Assembly: GCA_044892525.1 (NCBI GenBank)
Contig: CM097885.1
Coordinates: forward strand, 80,538,001-80,602,000
DNA length: 64,000 nt
Source of the DNA: Schmidtea polychroa
Taxonomy: Eukaryota
Direction: 5' to 3'
Within the stretch, counting starts at the first letter, position 1. Each line of letters begins with the position of its first letter. The notes under the pieces were generated by a model. That model was not told the origin of the DNA, ran no database searches, and worked only from the letters and a program-made list of their open reading frames with translations. Position numbers and translations under genes: made by a program. Shown in pieces: positions 2,759 through 54,029 of this stretch.

Positions 2759-3064
2759 TTAAATCTCGGTCTCACAGTAGATTTTATGTAAAGCTTCAGA
2801 CTGAGCTTTTATTGTTAATCGTTGGCATTGGCTTTCTTCTAGGAGGCTGTTTCGACAGTGCTCCAACCGTAATACCTTAGTCTTCTCCTTTATCTGGGAA
2901 GAGGAGAACCATGTACATTCATAATGTTCGATTCGTTTTCTCAATTGTCCCACATGTTCCTTTAATTTTCGGATGTCTTCATTCTTATCCGCGCAGGATA
3001 AACACGGGGGAAGGCCCTTTGGTGGTAGGCTGGGTTCGCACATTCTAGAAATGAATCGTCGCAT
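2759..3064 (-). CDS. unknown CxxC/coiled-coil 'TWFS' family protein, copy A (101 aa, probably C-terminally truncated)
   Basis: About half the residues are identical by hand alignment to 38904-39470 (PCxSCADKN, TWFS, EHCR, QSEALHK). Followed on the minus strand by AATAAA and a GTTACA end at 2706. Confidence 0.6.
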   Translation of the reverse strand: MRRFISRMCEPSLPPKGLPPCLSCADKNEDIRKLKEHVGQLRKRIEHYECTWFSSSQIKEKTKVLRLEHCRNSLLEESQCQRLTIKAQSEALHKIYCETEI

Positions 3065-6372: not shown

Positions 6373-8452
6373 ACCCACCTCTAAGAGAACTTCTAAAACC
6401 AGTTACAATACAAAATGTAACTAAGCAGGCCCTAGCAGGGATAGCTAGCCAAATCGATAAAAACGTTGGAGACGCTAGTGATAAAACTGAAACATGGAAA
6501 AGATTGAATCAAATATTACGACTGATTAAGCCCGAATGGCAAATCAACAAAGATAAAAATATTAATGTTTAGAAAATTGCAGAAAAGTCAAGAAAGAGAT
6601 GGAAAAGATTCCAGGAAGTACCAAGAAACAAGAGATGTTCGAAGTAGCAGGACAGTTCATAGATGAAGGCATGATGAAAGGGGAAATGATAACGATTTTA
6701 GCCCTAATGTTTAGAAATGCCTTGATTATAAGTAAAGATTATTCATCGAGGATCCCAGCAGCAATAGACAGGTTAACTGATATCATCGAAGTGAATTTTT
6801 GAATATGGATGGCTGAACACAAGTTTTGGGAGATAAAAGAGACGAAAGGAAAATATGAGTTAAATGAAGAATTGTTAACAGATAATATTTCAAGTAATCC
6901 ACGGGGAACAAGTGGATTTACTAGTTGGATGATGATGCTTTTGGTAGAGATGGGAATATTGCGACAGATAAATTCCTTAACGGCATATGATTGTAGTGAA
7001 CCAATACTATCGTGAATCTACTCATTAGTAGACACATTGGAATGCAAGGAAGCTAAAGTTGCGAAAAAGGAAGATGTGGAATATCATGTTTATCAGCAAA
7101 CAGAGTTTTACAGAACCAGAGTCAGGGAATGTCGAATACAGAGAGTGACGTTTGAATATTACTGTGGATCAAATAGTTATTCAGCATTTTTAGGAGCTAA
7201 ACTCATTCCTATATCTTTAATAATCCCACCAGAGGGTTGTGTAAATGCTTTTCGGTCAAAAACAGTTAAAATAGATGATGAGGTAACAATTACCGCGGAG
7301 GAAGGGAAAAAGTAGGGTATAACTATTACCCGGGGAGGACCGATAGCAGATGATAGTTCTTGTCATGGCAGAAAGGAAGTAAGAGGTTCTAATGTGGTAA
7401 GCTATGTAGTAACAGTTAAGGATTACACAGTAGAGCTGATCGAATACGAGGGGACTTTTGAAGTATCTATGCGAAAAATGATGTCCCATCCGGAATGCAA
7501 CGTGAAATTTGGTTATTGTAAAACTAGTCTAGCAGTACTAACGTACCAATCAATGAGAGACTTTTGTGATTTAGGATACCTGAAAAAGGTATTATTTTCA
7601 AGGTTAGATAGAAAACGTTTTACGTCTCAAGATGCACAACAAAGTGGTTGGGGAGACAAGATGGTTCACAAAACGAAAAAGAAAGAATTGCCGGAGAAAA
7701 GCACAGCAGTAGTATTAGTCTCAAGGAACCCAACAGATGCAATTCGCTTAGTCTGAAAGAAATAGACAACAAAATGTGGTGTACCAATATTCGAAACCAA
7801 TTATAAGGGAATATATTTAGCATACAAATATGTTCCAGCAGCAAAATCACTACATCTATCAGATATTAAGATAGCCAAGTATATCAATAATAAGATTGAT
7901 TTTTTTGTATCATGATTTACAGAAACAATTGTTAGATGTGTATCAGGAAGTGATCCTGAACGACTGTCGTTTAAACCGAGAAATAATACGAAATAGATTA
8001 GCAATATCTATAGTTAATCCTGATTTAATAATGCCAATGTTGACAGGAACATTTGGTAGAATCTTGGGCGAAGCAATCTATAGCTACCAATGTAAATCAA
8101 TAAAGGTAGAAATTACCAAATACGATCGATATACATTAGAGCTTCCTGTGAAATATAAAAGAAAATTGAGATTCATGATACCAGTATCACATCAGTTATT
8201 AAAGGAAGATGCCTCACCGTTGACAACAATTTGCAATCCAGCAATGTTACCATTATACAAAATTAACAATATTTGGATTTCGTTGCCAGACAGAAAGCCA
8301 CCTTCAAAACCATTTGAAGTGCTTCAAGCTACAAAATTAGAAACTAAAATGGAGTTTCAACTATTAAATGAGATGTCAAAAGGGGAGTATATACTCCGGA
8401 AGATATTGAAGAAGCTCGGAGAGCAATTGTATTTCCCCAAATTAGAGATTGA
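6369..8452 (+). pseudogene. chuvirus-like (class III, gB-like) envelope glycoprotein G1 with long N-terminal leader, C-terminally truncated
   Basis: Hydrophobic WMMMLLVEMGIL precedes AYDC (6983-6994). Then VYQQTEF..VREC..YYCG..S, C-x-GYC, YINNKIDFLY, DCRLNREIIRNRL, GRILGEAIYSYQC, ELPV, CNPAMLPLY and GVYTPEDIEEARRAIVF. Four in-frame stops, frameshifts in a T run (~7900) and a G run (~8382). No TM anchor retained. Confidence 0.82.
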
Positions 8453-8523
8453 CAGAGATAATAACAAGAATCAAAATTATTACGTAATTGATAATTAAAA
8501 CAAAAATTTTAATTTATAAAAAG

Positions 8524-13971: not shown

Positions 13972-14342
13972 TGTTGGCGCTTACGAAAAAGACAATAAAA
14001 AATGAAAAGAGAATTGGAGTTGATAGCGAGCTTCCGTAAGTACCAACTAAGTACCCATGGTTGTGGTCCTTTTGGAACTTTACTAAGTTGTCGAAAGTAT
14101 AGAGTAGGTGAGCCTCTATGTTAAGACTACTCCGTAGACTTTCTTGGCAGGTTCGTGACTGCCGATAGGATATATTACGTCGATATCTATAATTCAGATA
14201 TCAAGGTCCTCTAACTTCCAAAAAGACCATTTCCTGGAGTGTAGTGAGTCGATGGCGCAACGAGAATATCTAATCTGCGTGATTAATAATTAATGTTGGG
14301 CTAGTACTGATTCCTAGACCCAAAAATCTTGTAAAGGTGACA
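13972..14342 (-). mobile_element. solo-LTR-like element carrying the conserved structured motif
   Basis: Minus strand reads TGTCACC...GCCAACA. Motif at 14044-14182. No matching TSD found. Confidence 0.5.
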
Positions 14343-19210: not shown

Positions 19211-19709
19211 TGTAACCGGGAACAGGTCCAACAACAGGTCGAGTGTCTTCAAGCCAGCATCACTAAGTTCAAAGAGCGATGCAAAGATGGAACGGACTTA
19301 GTTTCGCCCCAAGGTCATGCACAAGCGCATGAAACAGATTGAACAATTGCAGCTTCAAAGTGCTCAGGACAAAACCGAAATCCGCACTCTGAAGTTGCAA
19401 ATGCGTGAAATAGAGAAACCTAAATCAGAGAACTATAGACGAGCATGTCACGGCAGCAGTTCGCCCAATGGCTACGGAGCTGGCCGAAATCCGTACGGCC
19501 AAAACCACCAAGTCCAAGCGCAAACGGCTAGGGCGAGACGGAAGAGAACAGTTAAAATGATTATGATTACGCAACCCAAACCACTTCATAAACAAGAAAT
19601 GAACGATATGATTAACTTGCAAATAAAATTGTATTGCTTTAATGCTAGTTTGATGCCTGTTAGTTTATTGAGGTTGAGTGAAAAATTGCGAGTTTTGGGA
19701 AAACAATAG
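19211..19709 (+). pseudogene. 'TWFS' family copy B (5'-truncated, frameshifted)
   Basis: LQASITKFKERCK/MERT*FRPKVMHKRMKQIEQLQLQSAQDKTEIRTLKLQ, where TAG replaces the W codon. Nucleotide homolog of the 28930-29690 copy. Confidence 0.6.
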
Positions 19710-19711
19710 AG

Positions 19712-19947
19712 TCAAGGGACCAAAGCAAAATCGGCCGTATATCTTCTACCGATAGTCTGTGGACCCAAAGAGTACCTGACAATTATAGTGCAAGTGGTGC
19801 GCTCACTTTTTGCGAGTACTCACCCAGTTGATACATTACCAACGATAATCACTCATTGGATATCAATTGGTAGGATCATCATTGTATTCTTGTTTACGCT
19901 GGAAACAACACGAAAGGGTAAGATGTTTGACTACCTGTAACCCACCA
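19712..19947 (+). mobile_element. short LTR-like end downstream of copy B with partial structured motif
   Basis: Colinear with 28930-29160 (inverted) and ends TAACCCACCA. Motif at 19743-19821. Confidence 0.5.
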
Positions 19948-28929: not shown

Positions 28930-29160
28930 TGTTGGGTTAAAGGTAATCAAATATTTTACCTCGTCGTGCTGTTTCCAGCGTAACCCAAAATACAATTGAA
29001 ATGTAACCACTTGATACCCGTTGAAGGATCAACGTTGATAATGTATCAAGGGTTGGAGTACTAGCAAAAAAGTGAGCATACTCTGTATACTATAATTGTC
29101 TAGTACTCCCTTGGGTCCACGGACTGCCGATAGAAGGCCTGTGTCCTATTTCCCTGACCC
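28930..29160 (-). mobile_element. short LTR-like end downstream of copy C with structured motif
   Basis: Preceded on the minus strand by purine tract AAAAAGAGAAGGG and ends TAACCCAACA. A perfect 10-bp stem GGAGTACTAG/CTAGTACTCC lies at 29055-29109. Confidence 0.55.
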
Positions 29161-29418: not shown

Positions 29419-29690
29419 TTAGTCTTGCCCAAGCTGCATTGCCGGTGTGGTTATGATTTCTGCCATCGGTTGTATCTGGGCGATCACGTCTTGGTTCATC
29501 GCTTGTTGGTGCACCTGCGTTTCTAAATTTCTTATTTGTAGACGGAGAGCTCGGATCTCAGTTTGATCTTGGACGCTCTGAAGCTGTAGTTGTTGGATCA
29601 GCTTCAGGCGCTTTTGCATTTCGGTGGGACTAAACCAGGTCCCTTCTAATTCCCGGCACCGTCCCTTGAACTCTGCTGGTCTCGTTCCAT
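29419..29690 (-). pseudogene. 'TWFS' family copy C
   Basis: An in-frame extension upstream of the annotated Met gives EFKGRCRELEGTWFSPTEMQKRLKLIQQLQLQSVQDQTEIRALRLQ. Confidence 0.62.
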
Positions 29691-35378: not shown

Positions 35379-37755
35379 TACGTTCGTTACATTTGTTTTT
35401 TAACATTTTTGCCATTTGGACATCGTGTACCACAGGTGGTACACTAGCGATTTGTTTTCTGATCGTGTGCGCCACCTGTGGTACACTATGTGTATGTTTA
35501 TAGTACTTTATGAAAATGCTAACATATTATATTAAAACTATGTTTTTAAACTTACGACTGTCATGAATATTCAAAAATTGATTATATTATGCATGTACCA
35601 GTGGTGGTACACAAAAATTTTATAGTAAACTCTATTTAAATAGTACTTAAAATTTCAAAAAACATTTTGTTGAAAGAAATTAAAAAATTCATATTTTATT
35701 CAGAAATAAAAAGAAATTCACTATAATGAAATATAACATTACGTATAACATATAATAAAATTAATATAAATAGTATTTAACGATATTTTGCATTGAAACA
35801 TTCCAAACACATTTTAGGTTTATCAATGCAATTATTGCAAAAAGTTTGTACTTTTTTGGCGTCACTGCGAACTACTTTAGCCCCTTTTAATTTCTGTATA
35901 TTTCTAGTGGTTGCTGCCTGACCATCGCGTTTAATTGATTAGTTGGATTTTTTAGGTTGACTGAAGGAGTGCTGGTACTAGGTTGGGTATTATCATTATT
36001 ATTATCATTATCCCTTAGTAGACCTTCTATTACTTTTTCTTTGAAATTAAGCATGGTAATGGTTTCATTTGGTGTTAGATAGTGGTTAGATATAACCCAT
36101 GCATTAACAATGCTTGTCCAAAGTATGAGCTCAAAATAAATATTTTATACCATCTAATGGATTTTCGTAATGGTGTATCATAAGACGACATTTGGTCAGA
36201 ATAATGACACCTTTTTTTATTTGGTTACACTGCAACGGGTTTAGTAACATTTTCTCCAAATTTAGTTTTTCCTGTTTCAGCTAGCTTGACGGTATACTCT
36301 GGATTACTGGACAGCATGACAACTTCTCTTTTGTCTGTCCATTTGAAGATGCGTATTCCATTTTTGTTTTTTTCCAAATATTTCACCCTTTTTTACTTTT
36401 TTCTTACATACTTCTTTGCAGTTGCTTCGTCTGTTTTTTCGCAAAGTTCTACAAACATAGGTCTTTTGTTGCAGCAATTCTTCAGGAAGCGGTACACTTG
36501 TATAAAAATTATCAACAAATAATGTTCTGTCTATCTATAAGTCCATCAAGTAAACCCATTGTTATGTCTTACGAATGGCCAAAACTGGATTTGGTACTTC
36601 CTGCGCTACTATATACCTTAATAGCGTATGTTTATCCATGGGAAGTGCATAGTTTATACAATTTTAAATACTTATGTGCTTTGCCTGGTAGATAATGCCT
36701 AAAATTTAGAAGGCCTCTCCATGGTGTCATTGTTTCATCTATAACAACATCCTCGCCACGGGTAACAGCTGATTTGGATGATTGTGATAGTTTTGCTAGT
36801 AATGGGTTTATTTTCACTAATTTTGTTTCTCCAACCAGGTTTTCATTATCACTAAAATGTGAACATTTTAAGAGCACTTCAAATCTATTACGTGACATAT
36901 TTTTGACAATAACAGGATTTCTGTATTAAGGATTTTTTGACCAATATAATCGCATTGTAGGAACAGTAGATGTACCCATAATCAAAATAATTGCCAAATA
37001 TTTTTGATTTCCGTTTCATTCGTATTCTACCAATTTGCTATTATTGAACGATGCCTAATAATATGTGTGGCAATGAATTGTAATGCATACCTATTTGTTT
37101 CTGTGACAATAAGATCTAAAATTTTATCAGTGATGAACAATTGTATAAACTAAACGGATCAGTATAATCAAGAATATAATTTAGACCGCTGTCATCATGA
37201 AAAAAGAATTGTTTGTCTCTAATTGTACATTCTCCCCATGTGTCAGTGCGTGATGTTACGTCTAAATCCTTCATTGAGCCAGTTTCGCTGATTATATCAT
37301 CTATTTCATTATTTGATTCGCTATCATTGTCAGATTCTGATGGTTCATATGACTCTTCAGATCCAGAAAAGTCAACATCTTCCATATCAGAAGAATCTCC
37401 TTTCGGGACAGCTAAAATCTCTTGCGGTTTCATTCTATATGCATAAATGTTAAATAAAATTTTATTTAAAATTTTTTAAATATGTGTGCCATATATGGTA
37501 CATGACGATTAAAATGCCGTATGTGTATTATATGGACGTAGTGTACCACAGATGGTCCATGACGTAAAAGTAACAAGAACTACTTATTGGACCCTGTTGT
37601 TTTTATTAAGCTTACCTTTGCCTACTCACAGACGAAATACTTTATAAATTTAAAAATAAAAATTTACACCCACAAATAATTTCCGTAATATTCACTCACG
37701 GCGTTTCAAAATACTGTGGAGTGTACCACTGGTGGTACACGATGTCACAAACGTG
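35379..37755 (-). mobile_element. decayed piggyBac (PGBD4-like) element
   Basis: TTAA-flanked ends (CACGTT-type) with GTGTACCAC..GGTACAC subterminal palindromes. Acidic N-terminus, MSRNRFEVLLKCSHF, VVIDETM.PWRG..FRHYLPGKAHKY.KLYKLC, DNFYTS and C-terminal CNNC..MCLECF. Confidence 0.88.
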
Positions 37756-38185: not shown

Positions 38186-38519
38186 TGTTAACCAGTGCTG
38201 GGGTACCACTCGGTTGACTAAGCTAATTCAAGGCTCTACCATAAGGGATGATTGTCCGACTACATCTACTAACTCTCAACTCGTCAACTCAGAGTAGGAC
38301 CTCACACGATCTGCATTCCAACATAGTGCCCGTGAATTGCTTCACGTTGGTACTGCACTATGCAGGCGAGACGCCAGTAAGCAGGTGAGCTTCTGCCTTT
38401 AAACTACTCCTTACTGAGGCCTCGACTTCCCACACCTGACTGCCGATAGAAGGACTTACGTCTAGCAACGCGATCCGATCTCTCGCTGGGTCTCACATCA
38501 AAGGCAAACTTGACTGATA
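38186..38519 (-). mobile_element. LTR-like end downstream of copy D with complete structured motif
   Basis: Minus strand reads GGGGGG tract (38520-38525), then TATCAG...GGTTAACA. Motif at 38322-38462. Confidence 0.55.
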
Positions 38520-38721
38520 CCCCCCAAAATGAGTACTTCTATACATTTAAATATCGATACTAATTCATCACAAAAGACATATAAGAATACCAAAGAGAAA
38601 TAAAAATTTATTGTCCTAATAACCACACAGAATACGACATAGTATTTACATAGGAAAAGAAGAGACAATGCAGGATGACGGGAGTTCATAACATTTTTCG
38701 AGAACGTTTCACCGTGGGGCC

Positions 38722-39470
38722 TCATTCCTTCCATTCCGTGGCGAGTAGCAACTCCTCTAAATCAAAGAACTCGGAGGCGTTCTCCTCCCAGGCTACACCG
38801 GCGGCTGATATAATTCGCGCGGGGGCCCCGATGGTCAAGTCTATCACCGCGGAACTGGTACTTCGGGTGGTCGGATCTTCCGCAGAGGCCTTATTCTGTC
38901 TGCTCAAGGTACGTTCGCGCTGTCTCCTTTTGCGCTCTGCACGAGATAATTGTTTGCGTTTAGGTTTGCCCGAAATTGCAGCTTGCTGAGGCGTGTGGAT
39001 GTGGATGTACTAGGAGTTGATGCCTTGCTAGTACCCGTGATGATAACATCTGGTCGCTTGGGCGACAGTTCTGTTTCGACGCAATCTCGACAGGATCTCT
39101 TGAGCGGCTGAGATGGATTTGAGGAGGTGTTATGATGATGCGGAAAGATATTATCGGCCTCTTTAATGGGGATCTGGACGATCTTTCGCGTGGTGGCTGC
39201 CTGTAGGTAGACCTTATGCAGCGCCTCGGACTGCTCTTTAATCAAGCTCCTTTGTGAACGACTCTCCGAGATGAGAGCGTCACGACAGTGTTCGCTGCGA
39301 TACAGCTTTTTCTGGGTCTCCTTCATCTGAGCGGGGCTGAACCAGGTGCCCTCCAACTCATCTATTTTCTTTTTGTAGCGCCCGATCTGGGCCTGCAGAT
39401 CCCTTATAATCGCATTTTTGTCCGCGCAGGAGAAGCATGGGCGTAAAACGGATTTGGCGGTTGGCAGCAT
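38722..39470 (-). pseudogene. 'TWFS' family copy D, restorable to ~248 aa by removing a 2-nt AC slip near 38995
   Basis: The 188-aa ORF continues in the adjacent frame as PQQAAISGKPKRKQLSRAERKRRQRER...AVIDLT...WEENASEFFDLEELLLATEWKE*. Confidence 0.62.
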
Positions 39471-42397
39471 GTTAGATGGCTATAAAAAGAAATTGAGATA
39501 ACTATATTTAAGAGATCGTTGATTGAGTACGGTATTCGTTCACCATCGCATATCTGGCAACAAGACGATTAGGATAGACGGGAAAAGAAAACTCCTCCCA
39601 GAACGATTTTATTACTACTACTAGGCTAATCATTTACCAAGACAATACCAATTCTACTACCTATATCACCGCATTGACGAATGCAAATAAATTACTAGCT
39701 TCAAAATTAAGAGGATTTATGAATTACTAAATTTATCTTTAAATGCTGGTTTTCAAAACGTGCCTAATTATTAAATATTACATTTGAGTGTCGTTTAAAA
39801 AATACCTTCAATTATTATTTAAAACGTTTTTCGTTATTATTTAAAATACTCTTATTTATTAATTCGAATGGCATTAACCATTACTTAAAAATTTCTTTTA
39901 ATTATCAGCGAGACTACTTTTGATTGTTATTTGCGATATTATTAGGATCCTTGGAAAATTGGGATCATTCTAGGTTTATATTCTCAATGTAAGAAATTTC
40001 GGACAATCTGTTCGTCACACTTTTATACTTATACTACATTCCTGCCATCACATAATACTATTGGCGGAAACGAGCGGAACGTGACTTAAAAATTCAAAAA
40101 TTAGTTAACCCTTACATTTTTAATAAAAATTGGGATGAGAAATCTTAAGTTAAATCGAAAAATTATCATATCTCGCAATAATTATTCCCACCTTTAATTA
40201 GTACCTGCACACCATCAAACTACTCTTTGTAACACTTTAAATGACTTGAATTTGGTTCACTTTGCAATCCTTATCTTGTAATTACCCATTTTCATGCATA
40301 TTCGACTATAAGAATTTTGCCATTGTCGATAACTAATTATCGAAATTTTTACTATCATATGTAGTGTTCGTCCACAATTTGTCTACTGTGTGAAAATTAT
40401 ACTGATGATAATCGTCTGATAGTGATCTGCTTCAACCTAGCTTGATGCTAAATTGCCACACAAACGCGTGTGAATTGGCGGCTTCCTACTGTGGTAAGTG
40501 AAGTGTGTTAGTGAATATTATCTCCGACGACGAGCATTCTAGTTAATCATGTGGTGGATTCTAATGCTATGCCTGGTGTTAGTTTGTGGGTGTTATCTCT
40601 TATCGATGTTCACAGATCGTGGCTCTCATCTACCATACTCCTCTACATGTGTGTTGTCTAGTGGAAATTCGGCTCTGCTTGTGCATATGATGTTGGAAAG
40701 ATATTTAGACTATTCTATCGTTTCTAATTATTTTTGGCTGGGCTGCGAAACTGGAATATTTTGTTTCGAATCGAAAATCCTTTACCTCCAGAGATCCACA
40801 AAACGCAAGATTCCCTTCTTACTACCTACTCAATCTCTGTAAGTCTTATTTCAGGACGGGAGGTACCCAATAAATCGCAGAAAATTGTTCTAGATCAGAT
40901 AATACAAATTGGTTTACGGGTATATTAAACAAGCCTTTTCCACACCTAGTCTTATGTTTTATTTGATTTTTATTTAATTATCGTCATTTAATGCTTGCAT
41001 GATTGTCACTAGGAAAACTATGGATTTCAATTTGCATCATGGTAATACAACTGGAGTTCGCACTCGGATTTTTAAGTCGTCATAACATTTCACCTAGCTT
41101 GAAGTTATCGATAGTGATAGTACGAAGATCTTGTAAGATAACGTTTAACCTCATAGAGTCATTGTGGAAACTTCCTCAGTCATTGTGAAGCATGTATCTC
41201 ACTTGTCTAAAATTCTCGGATATACTGATTCACCCTATATTCTGTCAATTTAGTAGAATTTGAGTCGCCTTGAGCGATAGGACCCGTGAGGAAGCCCCCA
41301 CTTTTCGGCCCAATACAGCTGCGTGATTGAAGAACCCCATGTCCACCGACTGAGCTCCCGAAGGCACCTCATACCATGACAGTAAGTTCCTCAACTCCAC
41401 GTTACTCGAAGATTTTAAAGTCATATCATACTTGTGCATATCATGAATCACAAAACATAAAAATATAAAACATAAAATTCCTAAAATGAAAATCATTTAT
41501 TGATGCCAATTTAATCCAAATCTACAAAATGTAATTTCATTCAGACATTACTTAAACGGAAATCAAATGAAGAAGAGACATTTTAATGTTAAATTAATTG
41601 TTTAATCATTAGGTAATACTTCATAATTACTTAATAAATCTTAAAAACCAATAAATCTCTCTTACTATGGTTCGAAAATTGATCGTGAGCTGAATCGAAA
41701 GTTATGATTTGAATTCCGGTAAAGTTTATCTATTAGTCCTTGATCCTGTTGTTTCTTTGAATATCGATGATTTTCTATTGAATAGTGTCCTTCGAATAGG
41801 TTCTATAGCAGTTTGAAGTTAAACAGTGAGTAATTTTAAACGTTACTTACCTATAGCAGTTTGAAGTTAAACCGTGAATATAATGAATTTCATGTCGGTT
41901 TATATAGTATTTTGTGCATGCCTGCGGACCAATCAGAGTTGAGTACCGCTTATTTTAATTAATATAATTTCCTTTTCTTATTTTCGATTATTTCTTCTTA
42001 CTTTCTTATTTTTTATTATATTTTTTTTATTTATTCCTTTAACTTCCTCTATTTATTAAATTTTTCATCATTTTGTTTGTTAATCTATTTTCCTATTTTA
42101 ATTTCTTATTTTATTATTTTGTTTTCATTCTTACTTTTTAATTATTGTTTTTCTTATTTCTTATTCTGTTTTTTATTTTTTAAATTGTTTATTTTATCTT
42201 AATATCTTATTTCTCTTACTTTCCCTATTTTCTGCGTTTAAGCTTTCGATTCAGTCCAACACCAGCATAAATTTATTTCAAAGTAAACAAAGAAAATTTT
42301 TATTTTTGTATTAATATTAATAAAAAAAACAAACAAAACAAATTCAATATTTAAAAAAAGATAATATAAAAATAAAAATTACTATATAAATAAAAAT

Positions 42398-44340
42398 TTA
42401 TGTTTGCTTTTTGAAGAAGCTTCTTAGCATACACAAATTGTCCAATGTAGTATCATTAAGTCTTGACCTAATTTTTGTTGAAAATGCTCCAGCGGCGGAA
42501 AAGGCTCTCTCTGCTTCAACACTTGTTGGGAGAATACACAACAAGTTTTTGTAAATTATTTCCAAAAATGGTCCACGAGATCCACCTTCGTCCCAAAATT
42601 TTAATTCATTTCGAATCGCAGATTGAATTGATGTTTTTTTTAAAATTCTTGTTGTCGGCTGTAAAAGTGACTGCTGGATTTTTTGCTGCAACAATTTCTG
42701 TAAGGAGGGCTGCGTTTCACTTTCAAAAAATTCGTTGGGTTCAAATACTAAATCAGAATCAGACTCGGAATCCGTTGAATCAACTTCAGCAGTAATTTCA
42801 TCATTAAGTCGCTGGGCCAGTAATAGAATAATTTTATTTATTTCTGTTTTCGAGTGACCGGAAATGCTCTTGTGAATTTTTGTTTTGCCACCATTATGCA
42901 AATATTGTAGCACATCAGATAAAATAGTTCTTCTCCGATTGAACTGGAGTTCTATCTCTTTTTTCAATTCAAGGGCAAATTCGTCATTCTCACTAAAATT
43001 TTGTAACATAAACGTAAATGTTGCATCCGCAGAAATTAAATTAGCATCTGCACGGCATAAGGCGTCTACGGCTAATTTTTCTGGCATTAAATTTTTAGAT
43101 ATTCGTGATACCGAATCCCATTCTGATTCATATAAAATTATGTCCGTTTTAATGTCAATTAGTGCTTTTTTAATGAAGTTTTCAAAATATTAAAACGCTC
43201 TAACATAGACAACATGCTATTCCATCTAGTTTTCGAATCTAACACAAGCTGTAATTCTTTTTTATGATCTTGCTTCACCTATTTTTGAAGCACTTCATTT
43301 TTCAAAGGAGAACGACGAAAAGTTTTAACAATTTTCCGAACTTTTGTGATTAATGCTCGTAGTTGAAAGTTTTCAGTGGTTTCCATAACATCAGTTTCAA
43401 TTCCCATATTTACCAGCATTCCATTGTCATCATCCTCATCATCAGTAAGATTTTCTTCATCTAACTCAAAGTTCGGTTCATTTTCATTATTGTCCTGCTC
43501 TACTTCGTTTTCTGTTGCATTATCTACTAAATCCAACGTTTGCTTTTTATAGAGCAAAAATTTTATATGAGCAAAACATAAAATTTGTTCGCAGGGTAAC
43601 AATCTACCAACTTTTTGCATCATGGAGGCACCATCTGTAACAATGCATAAAATATCATTTCCAATATTTAATTGGCATGATTCAAGCTTTTTTTCCAGCA
43701 ATTTTATACAATCTTCAGGCGCTAATCGGCCATTAATACGAGCCAATCCCAAATTCCAGACCCGATCTCCTGATCCATGCACGTTAATTCATAAAACGTC
43801 TGTTTCGAGAAGAAGTCCATTCGTCATGTGTCAGACTGAAACGTACGTTTCTGTTTTTTTAGGAAATAATTCCCGAAATTATCGACTGCCGAATTTTTCT
43901 GCTTTAATCCATCACGACTTTTTGTATACTGGTAGGTGATTTCGGAATATCGAAAAATCCCCGCGTTCGTAAACATTTTCTTAAATCGTCTGAACTACAA
44001 AATATGCGAAACTGTAATCCGTCTGAAGCTACCATTCGAGATATTACTGCAGCAAAACTTTCGTCTACTTTTGAAATATAAAAATCTTTAATCGTTTTGA
44101 TTTTTGTAGCTAAATCTCCGGTATTCGCACCAGCAGCATCCGTATCATCAATTTTTCGTTTATTTAAAATCTTGTTATGTTTAGTCCGCAAATGGGTTTG
44201 CATGGGTGTCGTACACCCACCCAATATCTTTAAAACCTGCCTACATTGTGTACATTTCGCCACTTGAGTTTTGACTCCACACCGAATTTGAAGTACTCTC
44301 TTTGGAGACATCTATAAAAATTTCGTCTTGCTTATCCGCC
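42398..44340 (-). pseudogene. hAT transposase with BED finger (frameshifted)
   Basis: AKCTQC...MQTHLRTKH, DEWTS, LGLARING, IVTDGASMM, SRWNSM, LPTSVEAERAFSAAG...RSRLNDTTLDNLCMLRSFF. Confidence 0.92.
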
Positions 44341-45915: not shown

Positions 45916-48285
45916 TTTTTGTTTCTGATTCTGTGGGTCGTCAGGACAGAAGTAATTATTTCATCAGCCTTTGCTCATTATAAATAAATAGTCATGGCGA
46001 TGGCTCTTATTGAGCCTTTCTAATTTGATTTGAGCATTTGACTCGATATAGTTTAAAAAATTTTAATTTGTATTGGAATGTCAGTTCCCAACTAATGAGT
46101 TTGCGTATTTGTCTCGTTTGTTCCTTATCGTTTTTTCCATTTCTTTTTTGCAGGGAGATTTCTCTAATTTTTTATTTTTAAAAAATCATCCGGTATTTTA
46201 TTTAAAGTGCTCAAACCTTTAGATTGAATTGAACGATATGCTTTTAATTATTGAAGCACAATTGTGTGTTTAAGTAATACTATTTGAAAATGGTAAGAAA
46301 AAATGCATTTAAAGTTTCATTCAATTGAAAAAATCAAGTTAGTTGTTGTCTAACATGAATGAAATTAAATAATGAAACACTATAAATTGAATAATTAATA
46401 TTATTAAATGAAATATTAACACTATTCAATACAAAGGTTATACTAATAAATGAAAACTCCTATATTTACTCATTGACTAACTTAGATTTGCATTTTAAAA
46501 TAAATGAACTTATTTCGATTTCAAATCTCATAATTCAAAATTAAAACTAATTATTAATGTCCATATTTATCAATTATCGGAATCACAGTTATAAATCACA
46601 AATGTGATGTAACTGTTAAAATAATGTACATATCCTATAAAAAATAAAATTTTAATGTACTGTAAAATAAAAAAATCAATGAAAAAATTGATCTAAAGAT
46701 TGAAAAAATTGTTTTATCATTTAGAATTATAATCGAAAAATACAGAAAGTTTTAGCAAATATCAAAACCAAATAATTCTGTAAAGACTTATTTATCCCAA
46801 CATTAATTACTCAGTTGAAAAATGTACATTAGATATTTTATTTACTTTAATTTGTTTGGAGTATCTTTCAACACTTTCTCAGGCCAATTTACGACTGGAA
46901 TATAAATTCATTATTGAAAAAAATCATTATTGAGCCTAGATTCCAAAAAGGCTGAAAAATTTTTAATAACTCTGTTGTGATCTCAAAATATGAGATTATT
47001 TCATCGTGCGCTAGTTAACTATACAAATATATCACAATATAAAAACAAATGTGTATTTATTTATAAAACAAAATTACCAATTAAAAAATCAAAATCTACA
47101 AAATTTCTTTCGAATTTACAATTCACAAATTCAATATTTTCAAAATGAACTATATCCAAATTAATGCTTGCTATGTAAATGTGTGATTGTTATACTTGTG
47201 TTACTTGCCGAAGTTTTCGATATGTCTAATTCAAAGGTACAATATTGTGATTCCAACGATTGTGTATAAAGTGTTGGGCTGAAACTGAGAACTGAGAGTT
47301 TGTTTTAATCGATCGAAAATACCTAACACAAAAACCGCAAAGTTGAAAAAATTTATGATCAAGGTTTAATATAAAATAAATAAAATAAGTTACATCACAC
47401 ATTAAGAATCAATAAACCCCGTATAATAGAATAAAGAGATAAATAAATTTAACAGAAAAATTCAACACTTAAAAATTTCGATAGAAAAATAATAAAATGT
47501 AAAATAGAATTATTTGAAAATTATTTAAACGATATAAAAATTAAATCGTCAAAATAATAAAATTAGTTAGCATTATGTAAATTGTAAAGTTTATAGAATT
47601 AAATGGTTATGCAACTTATTAAATTTAAAGAATAAAAGTGTTTAAATTAATAAAAATTAAATAATTAATTAATGAAATTAATGAAATTAAAAATAAATAA
47701 ATAATTGCACACACTCATGCATGTATGCAAAATTAATTCAAGATTTCTCGCACTCTAATTGGATAGAGTGGCAGAGAATGCATGAATGCGCATTCAAAAT
47801 CAGTATAAATATTGATTACAAATTCATTTGAAAAAACTTTTTTTCAACACCACAACTTAATTTGCAGACAGTAAAGCTCTCATTTTTCGATTTTATGCCA
47901 TCGTGGATTTGGTAATTTATTTTTTTATTGTAATTTTTACGAAATGATTTAATTTAATAAATTTTACATGCAATTAATTTTTTTTAGTTAAATTTTCTTT
48001 TGTTGTCCTTTTTAATTGTTTAATTTCATTTAGTTTTAAGTTTTAAATAATAATTTTTATTCGGTTCAACTTTTACGTTAATTAATTTTGAATAGTAGTT
48101 ATAGTGGAACTGGAATCCAGTAGGCCACAGCATTAAGGGACACTAGTTGTTCCTATTGCGAGTAGGTCAGCTGGCTTTTCAGATTCACACGGATTGATCG
48201 GGCCATAACGAGGGGGTTTCTCCCCTGGTCTGTCTCCGTAAGTATTTTCTAGTCGGAAATAGGTTAGGACTAAGAATACAGGCAG

Positions 48286-48470
48286 ATCCCTGCTCAAATT
48301 TTTTGAAGGACAATTTAAATATTATGGGAAGTGTGGATTAACTTGGAAATAAGGGGTGATCCCTGCTCAAATTTTTTGCGAGATATGTTAAATATTCATA
48401 AATATCAAGAAAAATACCTAGCAACCTTTATTAATAGAAAAATAAGGGTGCATCCCTGCACAAAATTTTG
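48286..48470. repeat. three dispersed copies of ATCCCTGC(T/A)CAAA(A/T)TTTT
   Basis: Copies near 48286, 48359 and 48452, directly upstream of the motif-bearing segment. Confidence 0.7.
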
Positions 48471-48499
48471 AAAGGAAACAATAGAAAACATCTAGAAAT

Positions 48500-48760
48500 G
48501 AGGACCATAGCCGAATGAGATAGAAAAGTAGAAATAGAAAATGATCGATGACGTAAGACCTTCTATCGGCCGTCTAGAACCCGAAGAGAAAATACAATGG
48601 GGAGTAGTTTTAGCAATAGAGCTCACCTGCTCATTGTTTTTTCGCCTTTGTGTACAGTACCAACATGGTCGTCGCCATGGGCACACAAATGGTTTAAAGA
48701 ACAATAGTCGTGGAGGTGCTTAGGAAAGAGTCGAGTGAATACCTATGATTACCCCTAACG
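48500..48760 (+). mobile_element. LTR-like fragment with complete structured motif
   Basis: Motif at 48550-48687 is colinear with 38322-38462 (inverted). Ends ACCCCTAACG. Confidence 0.5.
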
Positions 48761-50349
48761 TATTTAAAATTTAAAATGACACACCCCTAAGTAACCAACA
48801 AAAGTAATATTTTTAATGTAATATAAATAATTTAATTTATGAAAAATTTATTTCTATTATAAATATATTATAATTGATAGACTACTTCTATTACATATTT
48901 ATTAAATATTTATTATCAATTTATTGATTTTCAAAATTATAATCAATAGAAATATAATAATATAATAATAATAAATCTTCAGTTTATTGTTTTACTCAAT
49001 TATCTGTTTATTTATTATAATGAAAACCTGTTCCTGTCTTCATATATTCAATTCACATATCAAGATAAAAATTAAGGATATCGATGATTTACAATTCATT
49101 CTAGATAAAACAAATGCTAAAATCTAATGTTAAATTGAATTGGAACTTTGGATTTGTATTGGTTGGGCTGTGAATTTGGATGTTCAATTGGTTCTCTACA
49201 TATGTATGGTTACGGTATTTATTGTGTCCCATTATTTAGTCCTTTGTCAATATGAATGTTTCAGTGGTTCTTACTCTGTCATTCAACATTCTTCCGATGG
49301 TCGTCGAGGTGATGTTTTCCTTATCTTTTCACTCAACACTAGTTCGATTTCGCAATTGTGAAGGTCTCACAATATACGATTGTTTCGATGTCCACTAGGT
49401 ATTTAAATAAATAAATGAAAAAAAATTATTGAAACAAATATTTAGCAGTAGTTTCTAATTTATTGATAATCGATAATGTAGATGAACTATTTAACTTGCG
49501 AGTGTCAACAATTTATATCAGTACTGTCCGAACAGTTATTTTGTTTGAACTTTTTGACGACTAATCAAACAATCACAATTTATTCATCCTATTAAAAATA
49601 TTTTATGTCATTATTTTTCAATAAAATTTTTCAATGTTTTTGTTTAATTTTTTACTTCGACTTATACGCGAGTATTTACGGTAAATATTCCGTTCATTTT
49701 GAGGCATAGTGAAAATTTTCTTAGGTTGTTTTCTTAGTTTTTAATTTTCTATATTGATTCTTTTTATTAATTTATTTTTTTGTAATTCTCTATAGTAATT
49801 ATTTAATATATAGAACTACGCTATATAGTTTTATTAATTATTTTTTTAGTAAAATTAACATAAAAAAATAATTATACATTGCAAATTCTATCTACAATTT
49901 CATAATTACAACAAAAGAAAATGTAACAATACACTACAATAATGCTTATAATTAAAATAATAATAACAATAATAATAACAATACCAATAATAATAATTTT
50001 GTTCATAATGACAATGATGTTAATGATTAAATATTAATAAAAATAATAATAATAATAATTAATCGGCAATTTTTTCCTTTAAAATAAATAAATTTTGATT
50101 CTGGGAATTTTTGCCAAAGCGACAATTAATTTTATTCATTATCATTACCAATATATGAAGAGTTAAACGTTTTCAGTGGACATGTTAAAGATATGGAGAT
50201 GGCTTGAGTTATAAATAATGTGATCAGAAAATTTATTTTTAGATGAAAAAACATTGAACATTAAGATCAAGATCGGAAGAGTTGACTAACATTGACTATT
50301 TTAATTATCGCTATTATCATGGATAATGCTAATGAATTTTATGGGTGGC

Positions 50350-52792
50350 GATCACTTTCCCGACAAAAGGTTTAAAAACTAAAAGAGAATTAATTCAGGT
50401 AAAAAATTCAGTAAGTAATTCAGAAATTATTTAAGTTAAAAAATTTAATAAATAAATAAAAAAATAAAAATTAGTTAAGTTAAAACTAGTTTAAAGAAAG
50501 AAAAAATTAATGTAAATTTTTTTTAATAAAAGTTAAAAAAATAATTAATAAATATAATTTAATTTTGAGTCATAAAATTAAATTAAAAAATTAGTCAATA
50601 ATCAATGAAAGCATTAAATTTAATTTTCAGACTTCTGTTTTGAAATTCATATTCATAAAGGTTTTTATGAATATTAAAGCTTGAGCTAAGCATTATAAAA
50701 AAATATCAAAAAAAAATTGTATGTTAAAAAACGTAAATAGAATATATTAGAAACCTAAAAATAAATTTAAAACATAAATAAATTAAAAATGTTTAATTTA
50801 AAGAGCTTATTCATAAAGAAACACTATGATCAATGCCACGAAGATAATCTAATAAAGTTAAATTTCTATGGTTATTAAAAACTGTTAAGATTCTTCTATC
50901 TCTTTCAATCACCTTTTTACTGTGCTTTGGACGTTCTTCGCCTCGAATAATACACTCAACTGAATTATCGACTTGTTTCTGCTCTTTTTGGAATTCTTTG
51001 ATAATATTATATAACCCAATGGGTGTTCCTGGGACACCCGATTCAATTGAATCATAAACTGACCACAATGAAGGAGGAAATAATGGCGGCGTTGGAACAT
51101 TTTCACTATTTCTTAAATTATGCCTGATTCTTTCATGCATGTAATTTTGCTCAAACCAATCAATCATTTCAATGGCATCAATTGAAATTTGAGGCGTGTT
51201 CCAAGGCATCAAAGGCATCTGGAATTTCACTCGCAGGAATAAAGGCTAGTGCAAAAAGATGACGAATAATAAGAGAAAATGATTCATCGCTTCCCTGTCT
51301 TGAAACCAAACCGCAAGATTGAATTTTTCGCCATCCACATTGCCCCAAATGAAAGAAAAACAAACTTTGTTAATTGCATTTAGAAATTCAAACTTTGATG
51401 CATTTATTGCTGCCAATTTCAAATCCGTAAATATTTTTGGTGGATTTAAATCAAATCCGTTTTCTTTACCACGATCAAATAAATCTTGAAATAATCTTTT
51501 GTAACACTCTTCATTTTTACTGGTCACAAGAGCATAAACTAGTGGCAATGTTCTGCTATTTGAATGGCCAACAGGCGCATGAATAGTGTATAATTTGTAG
51601 AAAATAGTGGGAACTGTTTTAAATTTACCATCCATCAGCCAATAAGATGCCTGAGATAGGCGCTTTAGATTTTCTTTAGATGTGAAGATCAAGATTCTTT
51701 CATTTATAACTCTTGAATCTCTTGCCAAAAATAAATCTCCATTCAAAGTATTGCATAAATGCGAAGGAATATTTATATCAATGAGTGATTGTGGTTCATT
51801 TGGTCTTTCCTCATGTCTTGTTCGCTTTATCTTTTGTCTTAAAGCGTTTTCGGATGGCAAATATGGTATTATATTTTTTTTATTGGACGCAATATTCGCC
51901 TGAATGATTTGGCATGGAAGGTCTCTTGTTTCTTTAGCCTGCATTTTTATCTCTCCAATTTTTCTCCCAACGCTAGCTGAACTTGCGTCAGGAGCGTTTA
52001 TTATGTTCACTTATTGTTCGAACATGATGCTTATCATCTAAGAATATTGTGGTTAGCCTGCTTTTGTAATTTCCAGACTTTTGTTTTCGCAAAACCAATA
52101 AAACAGATCATTTCGGTTCCTTTCCTTTACCATCAAATAACCTCTGAAGTTGAGTTTACCGTTTTTTTGGATTTAATTATTTCACAAATTTCACTCATCT
52201 TGTTGGACTAAATTTAATTAAAAACTTTAGCCATTTCAAAAATATAGTTTGATTTCAAAATAATTACTAAACTTAAATACTAAAAAAATTTATTAATAAA
52301 TGTAATCTAATCTATATCATATAAGAACTATATAAAATATTATATTATTGATTTGATAAGTATCAAATATCATTATACCCATTATTTATTTTAAGTAGTA
52401 TTATTTTTAACAAGTAAAATTATTTATTTTAAGTAATATTTTGATATTAAATTTTAATAGATTTGTACACAACATTAATGGTTCAAAATTCATATAACCA
52501 TTTTAAACAATCAATTTTATTTACACAAATTTTTTTAATGTCATTTTTGTTAAAAAATTTCTACTCTTTTATTTAAATCTTATCACTCAAAATTAAATTA
52601 TATTTATTTATTAAATGTTTTTACCTGAAATAATTTCTATTTATTTATTTATTAAATTTTTTAACTTAAATAATTTCTGTTTATTTAATAAACTTTTTTT
52701 ACCTGTATTAATTTTCTTTTAGTTTTTTTAACCGTTTGACGGGAAAGTAATCATGTCGGGCAAGTGATTGTCGGGAAATTGAACCAGACCCG
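50350..52792 (-). mobile_element. decayed Mutator/MULE element with long TIRs
   Basis: More than 100 bp of inverted terminal similarity (CACTTTCCCGACAAA..AAAACTAAAAGA..AATT..CAGGTAAAAAA). Transposase reads YWLMDGKFKTVPTIFYKLYTIH, LPLVYAL, FTDLKLAAINA, CFFHLGQC. Confidence 0.9.
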
Positions 52793-54029
52793 GTTTTTAT
52801 CACTATATTGACTATTATGGAGAAATGAATATTTTGTAAATGAATGTAATGTAGTAGTATTTTAGGAGAAATCTGTATTACCCAATTTTACATGCGATTG
52901 ACAAAACGAGTTCCTCACCTATCGTAAAGGGTTTTTAGCTTTGGCAATAAGATAACTTGCTTCATAAGAAGCTGTGAGAACTGGAATTTCAATTTTCTAA
53001 TGAGAAAACATTAGAAAATTTAAAAAATCATCTAATTCTAAAACCTTGAAAAAATAATTCAAAAAGCTTGCAAAGTTTGTTTATTTAATACTTATATATA
53101 GATAGAAATTTTAGCGTGTTGTTTTAAATTGGGAATTTTTCGCGACCTCATGAAAAAATCTAACGACCGCAGTTGTGGTCGTGACCCCTAGTTTAAGAAC
53201 CGTTGCTCTATAGTATTAATTTACTATAGCGAATTAGCTATATAGTTTTTAAATAATAATAATAATAAAATTAAAAAAAAAAATTAAAATTAACACATTG
53301 ACCATTAACTGATTCTTTCTGATTACCTTAAAAAAGAGCATCTGGTATACATAATTTTTTATGCAAATATATATTTTGTTATGTAATCATATTGTGATTT
53401 TTAAAAATTTTAAGTTAGAATTTTAGATATAAATTTGAATTGTTTTAATAATTTCGAAAAAATATTATTTCAATTATCATATATATCTAATGCCGTCAAC
53501 AGAATGGCAATAATCTAGTTAAATTTACTAGTTAGATTCACCGGCCAATCAAAGGGAATGTTGATACTGTATATGAATACGAGTATCAAGCATTTTGGCA
53601 ATTTAGTTATAATATTTTATAAAAAATTATTCAAAAACAAAGATTAGCATGAGCATACTAGGCCATCTGTTTATGGATGATATGGTGATGTACTGAGTTA
53701 TAATATTACCAAATAGCTTCGTTATTGAACTAAATAATTCGCTTTGATAATTCGTTCGTTGATCTGTAAGCAGTTTTTTGGTACTCATTATCGAAAGATA
53801 ACGTTTTATACAAATATTTTTGCAACTGTTTTTGTCTTTTGATTTTGCATCGCATATGCTTCTGGTCATTTAGTTAGAAAGTCACAAAAAAATTTCTTTT
53901 CTCATATTTGGCCATAAATATTTGTTGTGAATTATTTCGTATGTTGCTCTGTTTCCTGGGTGATTTATGTCATTTTTGAAATGCACCCGTTCCTGAATTC
54001 CTTTGGTAGGAGTATTCTTGGTGTGTTTT

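Follow-up and report, generated by a model that had tools for sequence, protein, structure and literature searches.

The window analysed here, a stretch of 64,000 nucleotides from Schmidtea polychroa, is AT-rich, repeat-laden DNA within a 781-Mb genome. It carries five copies of a motif built of three domains which lie, where the surrounding repeat is still recognisable, at the ends of long terminal repeats (LTRs), together with two solo LTRs of the families here called A and B, an open reading frame (ORF) within the family A LTR, and remnants of other mobile elements (Table 1). The places, strands and stems given for the five copies in a first-pass annotation were all borne out on re-inspection; two copies it had described as partial (29055-29137 and 19743-19821) are in fact complete, with the third domain just beyond the ends given, and all three domains are present in 5/5 window copies. 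A genome-wide search (781 Mb) returned 3,243 exact matches to the domain-1 word CCTTCTATCGGCMGTC and 4,692 to the domain-3 pattern, against none for the reversed control in either case. With thousands of exact core matches and empty controls, the motif is therefore not a chance occurrence, and it is also carried by further old lineages beyond families A, B and C.

Table 1. Coordinates of the motif copies, LTR features and other repeats in the 64,000-nucleotide window
Feature	Position in window	Strand	Details
Family A (Burro-type) solo LTR	38196..42261	-	TG...CA ends, 4-bp duplication CTGG; similar to 3,859-bp LTR
Predicted LTR promoter, family A	41899..41936	-	Reversed CCAAT box and TATA box; putative function
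Splice-donor-like site, family A solo LTR	41845-41852	-	
LTR ORF, family A	38722..39470	-	CxxC, coiled coil, Arg-rich stretch, acidic tail; split over two frames here
AATAAA poly(A) signal, then U-rich sequence	38607..38612	-	Putative R/U5 border just 3'
Domain 1, family A copy	38438..38462	-	GAC/GUC stem, asymmetric loop, short stem, 7-nt loop UUCUAUC
Domain 2, family A copy	38367..38424	-	Long stem, covarying; its U x CAC internal loop is conserved
Domain 3, family A copy	38318..38366	-	Outer stem, 8 x 1 internal loop (AGU(A/U)CCAA opposite G), inner hairpin
Terminal covarying hairpin, family A copy	38207..38296	-	Between motif and LTR end
Family B solo LTR	47272..48800	+	Gag-only family; 4-bp duplication AAAG; TATA-like box 47804-47811
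Motif, family B copy	48550..48692	+	Domain 1 48550-48574, linker GAACCCG 48577-48583
Remaining domains, family B copy	48583-48643, 48645-48692	+	Domain 2 and domain 3, respectively
Family C LTR end	28930..29146	-	Domain 1 29121-29146, domain 2 29055-29109, domain 3 29007-29052; terminal hairpin 28933-28987; LTR-ORF remnant near 29626-29646
Family C LTR end, decayed	19732..19947	+	Domain 1 19732-19759, domain 2 19770-19821, domain 3 19824-19870; LTR-ORF remnant near 19294-19310
Decayed motif copy, further lineage with B-like linker	14044..14181	-	Domain 1 14157-14181, domain 2 14093-14143, domain 3 14044-14090; LTR end not recognisable
Fusion glycoprotein fragment, Monjiviricetes-type	7875-8498	+	Pfam E 4.7e-22; probably derived from the internal region of a Burro-type element
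Remnants similar to another LTR ORF and to integrase region	2778-3013 and 53663-53883		
hAT and MULE transposase fragments, piggyBac-like frames (by eye)	284-1492, 42398-43788, 51246-52010, 36208-36925		

The elements that carry the motif were identified from the spacing of its copies. In family B, motif pairs about 14 kb apart belong to the two LTRs of 15.5-kb elements, with LTRs of 1.55-1.66 kb that are 99.3-100% identical within pairs and end in TG...CA, and a 4-bp target duplication in six of seven elements, the seventh having a truncated 5' LTR. Their one long ORF codes for a Gag of 877 aa that carries zinc knuckles; they have neither pol nor the fusion gene nor the LTR ORF, and the motif is retained. 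Loci L031-L050 (C1, 5.7-23.2 Mb) hold young non-autonomous elements of this gag-only, 15.5-kb type, whose LTRs are near-identical and whose gag is preceded by a long non-coding leader and a tandem repeat. Family A motif pairs are 26 kb apart and mark the 3,859-bp LTRs of full elements, and Pfam comparison of nine ORFs of one such element identified RING, Gag, fusion glycoprotein, PR-RT-RH-IN, ankyrin and MATH/TRAF domains, the fusion glycoprotein being of Monjiviricetes type and in frame ahead of PR-RT-RH-IN. The internal region of family C is of the same kind (RT 67-72% and Gag 38% identical to family A by blastp), the family B Gag is 32% identical to the Gag of both A and C, and no match was found between the LTR DNA of families A and C.

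Burro, or GYPSM1, elements are giant gypsy-like LTR retrotransposons of planarians (PMC6431247), and the part of that account available to us describes elements of about 30 kb with LTRs, Gag CCHC knuckles, thousands of copies, a fusion glycoprotein in frame between gag and pol, and ankyrin, MATH and RING domains. The family A elements share these features, a layout that by itself points to a planarian host, and the carriers of the motif are, by domain layout, Burro-type giant Ty3/Gypsy elements together with gag-only derivatives. The same part of the Burro account covers proteins, and not LTR RNA structure, an LTR ORF or the primer tRNA (PMC6431247). Loci L043 and L044 hold head-to-tail solo LTRs of family A type, 3.7-4.3 kb apart and of different subfamilies (about 70% identical), suggesting adjacent insertions. 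At locus L047 (278-2932), an LTR copy 96-97% identical to the family A solo LTR of the window cleanly lacks 39861-41268, an absence that is a deletion or a lost intron.

At all twelve distinct LTR/internal junctions found beyond the motif, a primer site that matches host tRNA-Pro at its 3' end lies 7 nt past the LTR end, with the motif 85-150 nt ahead of it; at base 18, ten of the twelve sites fit the UGG-type T-loop and two the CGG type. Both tRNAs are encoded in tandem arrays, tRNA-Pro(UGG) in a 475-bp unit and tRNA-Pro(CGG) in a 442-bp unit (1,580 and 616 pattern matches), situated at C1:130.90-130.95 Mb and C3:142.53-142.58 Mb, and the one pattern tried for a tRNA-Pro(AGG) gene had no match. 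Reading along the family A LTR, CCAAT-like and TATA boxes about 350 nt from its start are followed by a donor-like site, a conserved block, an acceptor-like YAG, a 250-aa ORF, AATAAA, U-rich sequence, the motif, the terminal hairpin and the LTR end; the promoter layout is the same in three of three family A LTR starts inspected. In 17 of 22 rows of family A, with three misassigned rows excluded, the AATAAA lies at -145 to -183 from the domain-1 loop; its position varies in family B. Given that the motif is 3' of the TATA box, the Arg-rich ORF and AATAAA, and 5' of the tRNA-Pro primer site, and with the normal spacing of AATAAA to the cleavage site (taken from the available part of PMC12789967), we infer from sequence that in family A it lies in U5, between the poly(A) site and the primer site. 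Contigs from presumed RNA runs touched the motif and the LTR ORF and not the LTR further upstream, and are of a kind from which strand, start and ends are not readable.

Two other features of the LTR were seen alongside this layout. The conserved block (41257-41408, minus strand) is 82-88% identical to other family A and B LTRs, in which the surrounding DNA does not align. Just after the TATA box, in 41790-41870 (minus strand) and in the LTR starts of L072 and L043, a stretch of 24-26 nt ending in TAG is repeated on both sides of the donor-like GTAAG, with a sequence that differs from LTR to LTR.

Alignment of copies from the three families gives a common fold. Domain 1 has a GAC/GUC stem (5 bp in family C), an asymmetric loop and a stem of 2-3 bp closed by the loop UUCUAUC, the short stem showing a G-C to A-U double change in 6/23 family C rows; domain 2 has a U x CAC loop beside an AGU/GCU helix common to all three families; and domain 3 has a 9-12-bp stem, the loop AGU(A/U)CCAA facing a single G, and a 6-bp inner hairpin. 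The first-pass annotation had proposed a covariation search in a larger alignment, and covariation is indeed strong and seen within families A, B and C: 27 of 51 pairs have double changes in family A (22 of 31 representatives aligned), 12 of 33 in family B (10 of 17 representatives plus five B-like rows) and 15 of 49 in family C (23 of 26 representatives), counts that are inflated by the relatedness of the rows, although double changes occur inside each family. Across 65 of 82 distinct domain-3 stretches, the 17 left out being mostly near-duplicates, 90.9% of 951 cells are paired, compared with 31-42% in slid-partner controls, and 14 of 15 pairs have double changes, a figure matched by 0/500 shuffles. 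The helices are thus under selection for structure, and have been maintained by compensatory change in three lineages. In the loops, CCAA is conserved in 83-88 and UUCUA in 86-88 of 88 rows per position (the search anchors bias these values upward), and across lineages with Gag proteins only 32-38% identical the three asymmetric loops hardly vary.

Not every pairing proposed earlier is part of this fold. The GAGTAG/CTRCTY stem can pair in families A (128/132 cells) and B (85/90 cells), but without double change, and GAGTAG is absent from family C. The register common to A, B and C is AGU/GCU, with the U x CAC internal loop, within a longer covarying stem; the GAGTAG register is a possible second conformer in families A and B, where it does not covary. 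A pseudoknot of CCTT with AAGG had also been suggested; it shows no double change in family A, and its GG partner is missing in 23/23 family C rows. The CC of the domain-3 loop can pair in cis with the opposite GGG in 59 and 61 of 65 rows, with almost no double change and with the third pair broken in 20/65, and a pseudoknot of CCA with a downstream UGG was dropped because the UGG in question closes the outer stem.

This covariation and the consensus folds support the original proposal of a structured RNA that acts in cis and is read from the sense strand of the LTR ends. Consensus folds favour the sense strand in three families (-47.9 against -31.0, -36.4 against -14.0 and -11.3 against -6.9 kcal/mol for sense and antisense, respectively), the family B fold lacking the domain-3 inner hairpin. 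Single copies are less informative, with folding that beats shuffles in only 2/5 window copies, and in domain 3 the margin of G-U over A-C on the sense strand is small (37 to 24). Since the antisense strand folds as well as the sense in 2/5 window copies, a function at the level of DNA might be considered, as factor-binding sites or as hairpins of minus-strand strong-stop DNA, but the fixed G-U pairs on the sense strand, the much better sense consensus folds, and compensatory change of a kind not expected of factor sites together make this extremely unlikely.

No match to the motif was found with Rfam 15 covariance models at E 1 over the 64-kb window, and at E 10 over eight short loci nothing but one snoRNA hit (E 5.9) was returned, in agreement with the earlier remark that the motif does not fit hammerhead, twister, pistol, hatchet or hairpin ribozymes; the same holds for twister-sister. 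The first-pass annotation had nevertheless allowed for an unknown ribozyme, and a self-cleaving RNA, either new or HDV-derived, could yield retrozyme-like LTR-to-LTR monomers or circles. The P1 of HDV-like ribozymes is 6-7 bp long and starts with a paired G1, and a P1 of at least 6 bp is seen in only 1 of the 58 rows scored for HDV features (two rows were skipped). Domain 1 does resemble HDV-like folds such as CPEB3, as far as the available part of PMC4836649 describes them, in its helix order (P1-P2-P3-L3-P3-P1), 3-bp P3 and 7-nt pyrimidine-rich loop, and a G after P1 is able to pair with the loop C in 55/58 rows, with the offset chosen per family; likewise a UYRU conserved after domain 3 can pair with 3-4 bases of the 5' loop in 47/58 rows, with offsets set post hoc. 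However, G25, which forms the G25.U20 wobble in L3 of HDV-like ribozymes (same part of PMC4836649), is present in 0/58 rows, and the catalytic J4/2 position holds a C in 24/58 (6/22 in family A) and is not conserved. The putative P2, of at most 4 bp, is without double changes, and 7/22 rows have an A-C pair in it; the P1.1- and P2-like pairings of the double pseudoknot are pairable but invariant or one-sided. Cleavage within the motif would, in addition, part the primer site from the 5' end and so cut the first-strand template. Without an Rfam match or the HDV catalytic features, we consider self-cleavage very unlikely.

The proximity of the motif to the primer site invites comparison with the U5/PBS leaders of retroviruses, in which, according to the available part of PMC11251516, HIV-1 U5 contacts the primer at its anticodon-loop and T-arm regions. 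As in those leaders, with their A-rich loop and primer activation signal, structured RNA, here putatively in U5, stands just ahead of an 18-nt primer site and a terminal hairpin is found at the LTR end; here, by contrast, there is no sequence or Rfam likeness to the leaders described in that part of the source, and there are three invariant asymmetric loops (PMC11251516). Direct docking of the primer would have the domain-3 CCA read the tRNA-Pro UGG anticodon, as a counterpart of the HIV-1 A-rich loop, while the GAACCC linker paired with the T-arm in the manner of the primer activation signal. In host tRNA-Pro(UGG), the anticodon loop does have a complement in CCAA and the T-arm one in GAACC/TGAAC, and the UGG-type T-loop is that favoured by the primer sites. 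Complementarity of the unpaired segments to nt 1-58 of tRNA-Pro is, however, no better than to 500 shuffled tRNAs (P 0.16-1.0 per segment, 0.43-0.97 per family), and as contacts outside the primer site are thus at chance level, direct docking is unsupported. Furthermore, family A is without the GAACCC linker, which is confined to B and C; the CC of CCAA has its own cis partner in the opposite GGG; and every primer site observed is of the Pro type, with neither a different primer nor a different triplet found in any family. We consequently rate direct docking a slim prospect.

Variants at the first or second C of CCA, counted with patterns differing at one position, number 108 and 95 against about 4,700 CCA copies, and are scattered single changes rather than triplet-switch families. 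Two old low-copy CAAA lineages have mixed or very few copies and no primer site. An LTR derived from tRNA or 5S sequence, like Helenus/Ajax as presented in the available part of PMC10886601, was likewise set aside, there being no tRNA or 5S match over the motif. A more elaborate proposal is a new class of compact tertiary RNA, in which two short pseudoknots dock domain 1 into an HDV-like nested fold around domains 2 and 3. Within the LTR of an enveloped retroelement, it would act either as a ribozyme of new chemistry or as a T-box-like reader of the anticodon of the tRNA-Pro primer. This we regard as quite improbable.

The LTR ORF raises a different possibility. It sits 250-450 nt upstream of the motif, behind a splice-acceptor-like site, with a YAG within 10 nt of the ATG in 15/16 family A rows, and its product combines a coiled coil with a stretch rich in Arg/Lys and a tail that is acidic and leucine-rich. 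In the Rex/RxRE and Rev/RRE systems an Arg-rich accessory protein made from spliced RNA acts on a structured RNA target, and asymmetric internal loops are typical binding sites of Arg-rich motifs. The motif could thus be a response element for the LTR-encoded protein, which would recognise the asymmetric loops and so favour the export of unspliced RNA or its read-through, and the candidate spliced Arg-rich protein beside a structured LTR RNA is indeed reminiscent of HTLV-1 Rex/RxRE and HIV-1 Rev/RRE. Against this, the element is here 3' of the poly(A) signal, and no protein homology to those systems was found: the LTR ORF matches no Pfam family at cut-off, the searches run gave no homolog, and the Atlas hits are all below 0.9, and binding to the motif is a prediction. 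The basic stretch is not the same in families A and C, whose LTR ORF proteins are 24-26% identical, yet the loops are nearly invariant; the gag-only family B keeps the motif without the ORF; and the conserved block at 41257-41408, upstream of the ORF and common to family B, is a competing candidate site. A response element is therefore, in our judgement, rather unlikely.

Further roles are limited by where transcription would start and end. The predicted TATA box is about 3.4 kb from the motif in family A and 750 nt in family B, and with a predicted start some 3.4 kb upstream the TAR-like element suggested in the first-pass annotation is unlikely. A predicted start near the LTR 5' end also means that full-length RNA must read through the AATAAA of the 5' LTR, and a fold 3' of this hexamer could either make the 5' LTR less prone to 3'-end formation or carry the hexamer to a cleavage site far from it, for which the long structured R of HTLV-1 and BLV, and the HTLV-1 hexamer brought to a distant site, offer a precedent in the available part of PMC12789967. 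But some 145 nt separate the hexamer from the start of the motif, U-rich sequence is already present at the normal distance from the hexamer, and the motif is identical in both LTRs; poly(A) control is accordingly a distinctly improbable function.

We favour, at about an even chance, a reading in which the motif is a U5 leader scaffold for RNA packaging and for the start of tRNA-Pro-primed reverse transcription. Transcription would start near the LTR 5' end and the poly(A) site would fall about 130 nt upstream of the motif, so that the motif would be present only in RNA reading from the 5' LTR into the element. Its fold could then be the handle by which Gag picks up full-length RNA and would set that RNA up for tRNA-Pro-primed reverse transcription, with the invariant loops either read by a candidate partner, such as Gag nucleocapsid, RT or a host protein, or engaged in a tertiary contact. 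What is observed is the position before the primer site, the compensatory change, and the retention of the motif in elements without pol. That 15.5-kb gag-only elements with 99.3-100% identical LTR pairs keep it argues that the motif is needed in cis, although such retention would fit any signal served in trans. Retroviral packaging signals lie mostly 3' of the primer site, which weakens the leader-scaffold reading. A parallel is the Ty1 5' domain, which serves translation, packaging and the start of reverse transcription (available part of PMC5454406), and both the Ty1 5' TIPIRT domain and the Ty3 5' leader (PMC5454406 and PMC11381356, in the parts available) are cis structures of the 5' leader tied to packaging and initiation. 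These leaders, as described there, differ from the motif in having a palindromic dimerisation site or a split primer site (PMC5454406, PMC11381356), neither of which was seen here. The dimerisation signal proposed earlier likewise lacks a conserved palindromic loop in the alignments of families A, B and C.

Outside this genome, 14 matches to the 16-mer in viral contigs were judged from their flanks to be chance, metagenome contigs gave 0 matches to the two-domain pattern, and six metagenome matches to domain 3 lacked the hairpin and the other domains. The literature searched gave no description of RNA structure in Burro LTRs, on whose annotation the supplements of the primary Burro paper could bear. 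That U5 should be structured next to the primer site is to be expected, and the host family is already described. To our knowledge, however, leader structures have been mapped for few retroviruses and for yeast Ty elements, and hardly for animal Ty3/Gypsy, and the thousands of copies in several lineages make the motif an unusually rich natural covariation set. Its loops have outlasted the proteins encoded beside them, remaining fixed while Gag has drifted until only about one-third of it is identical; such constancy suggests either that a partner is conserved or that the fold is compact.
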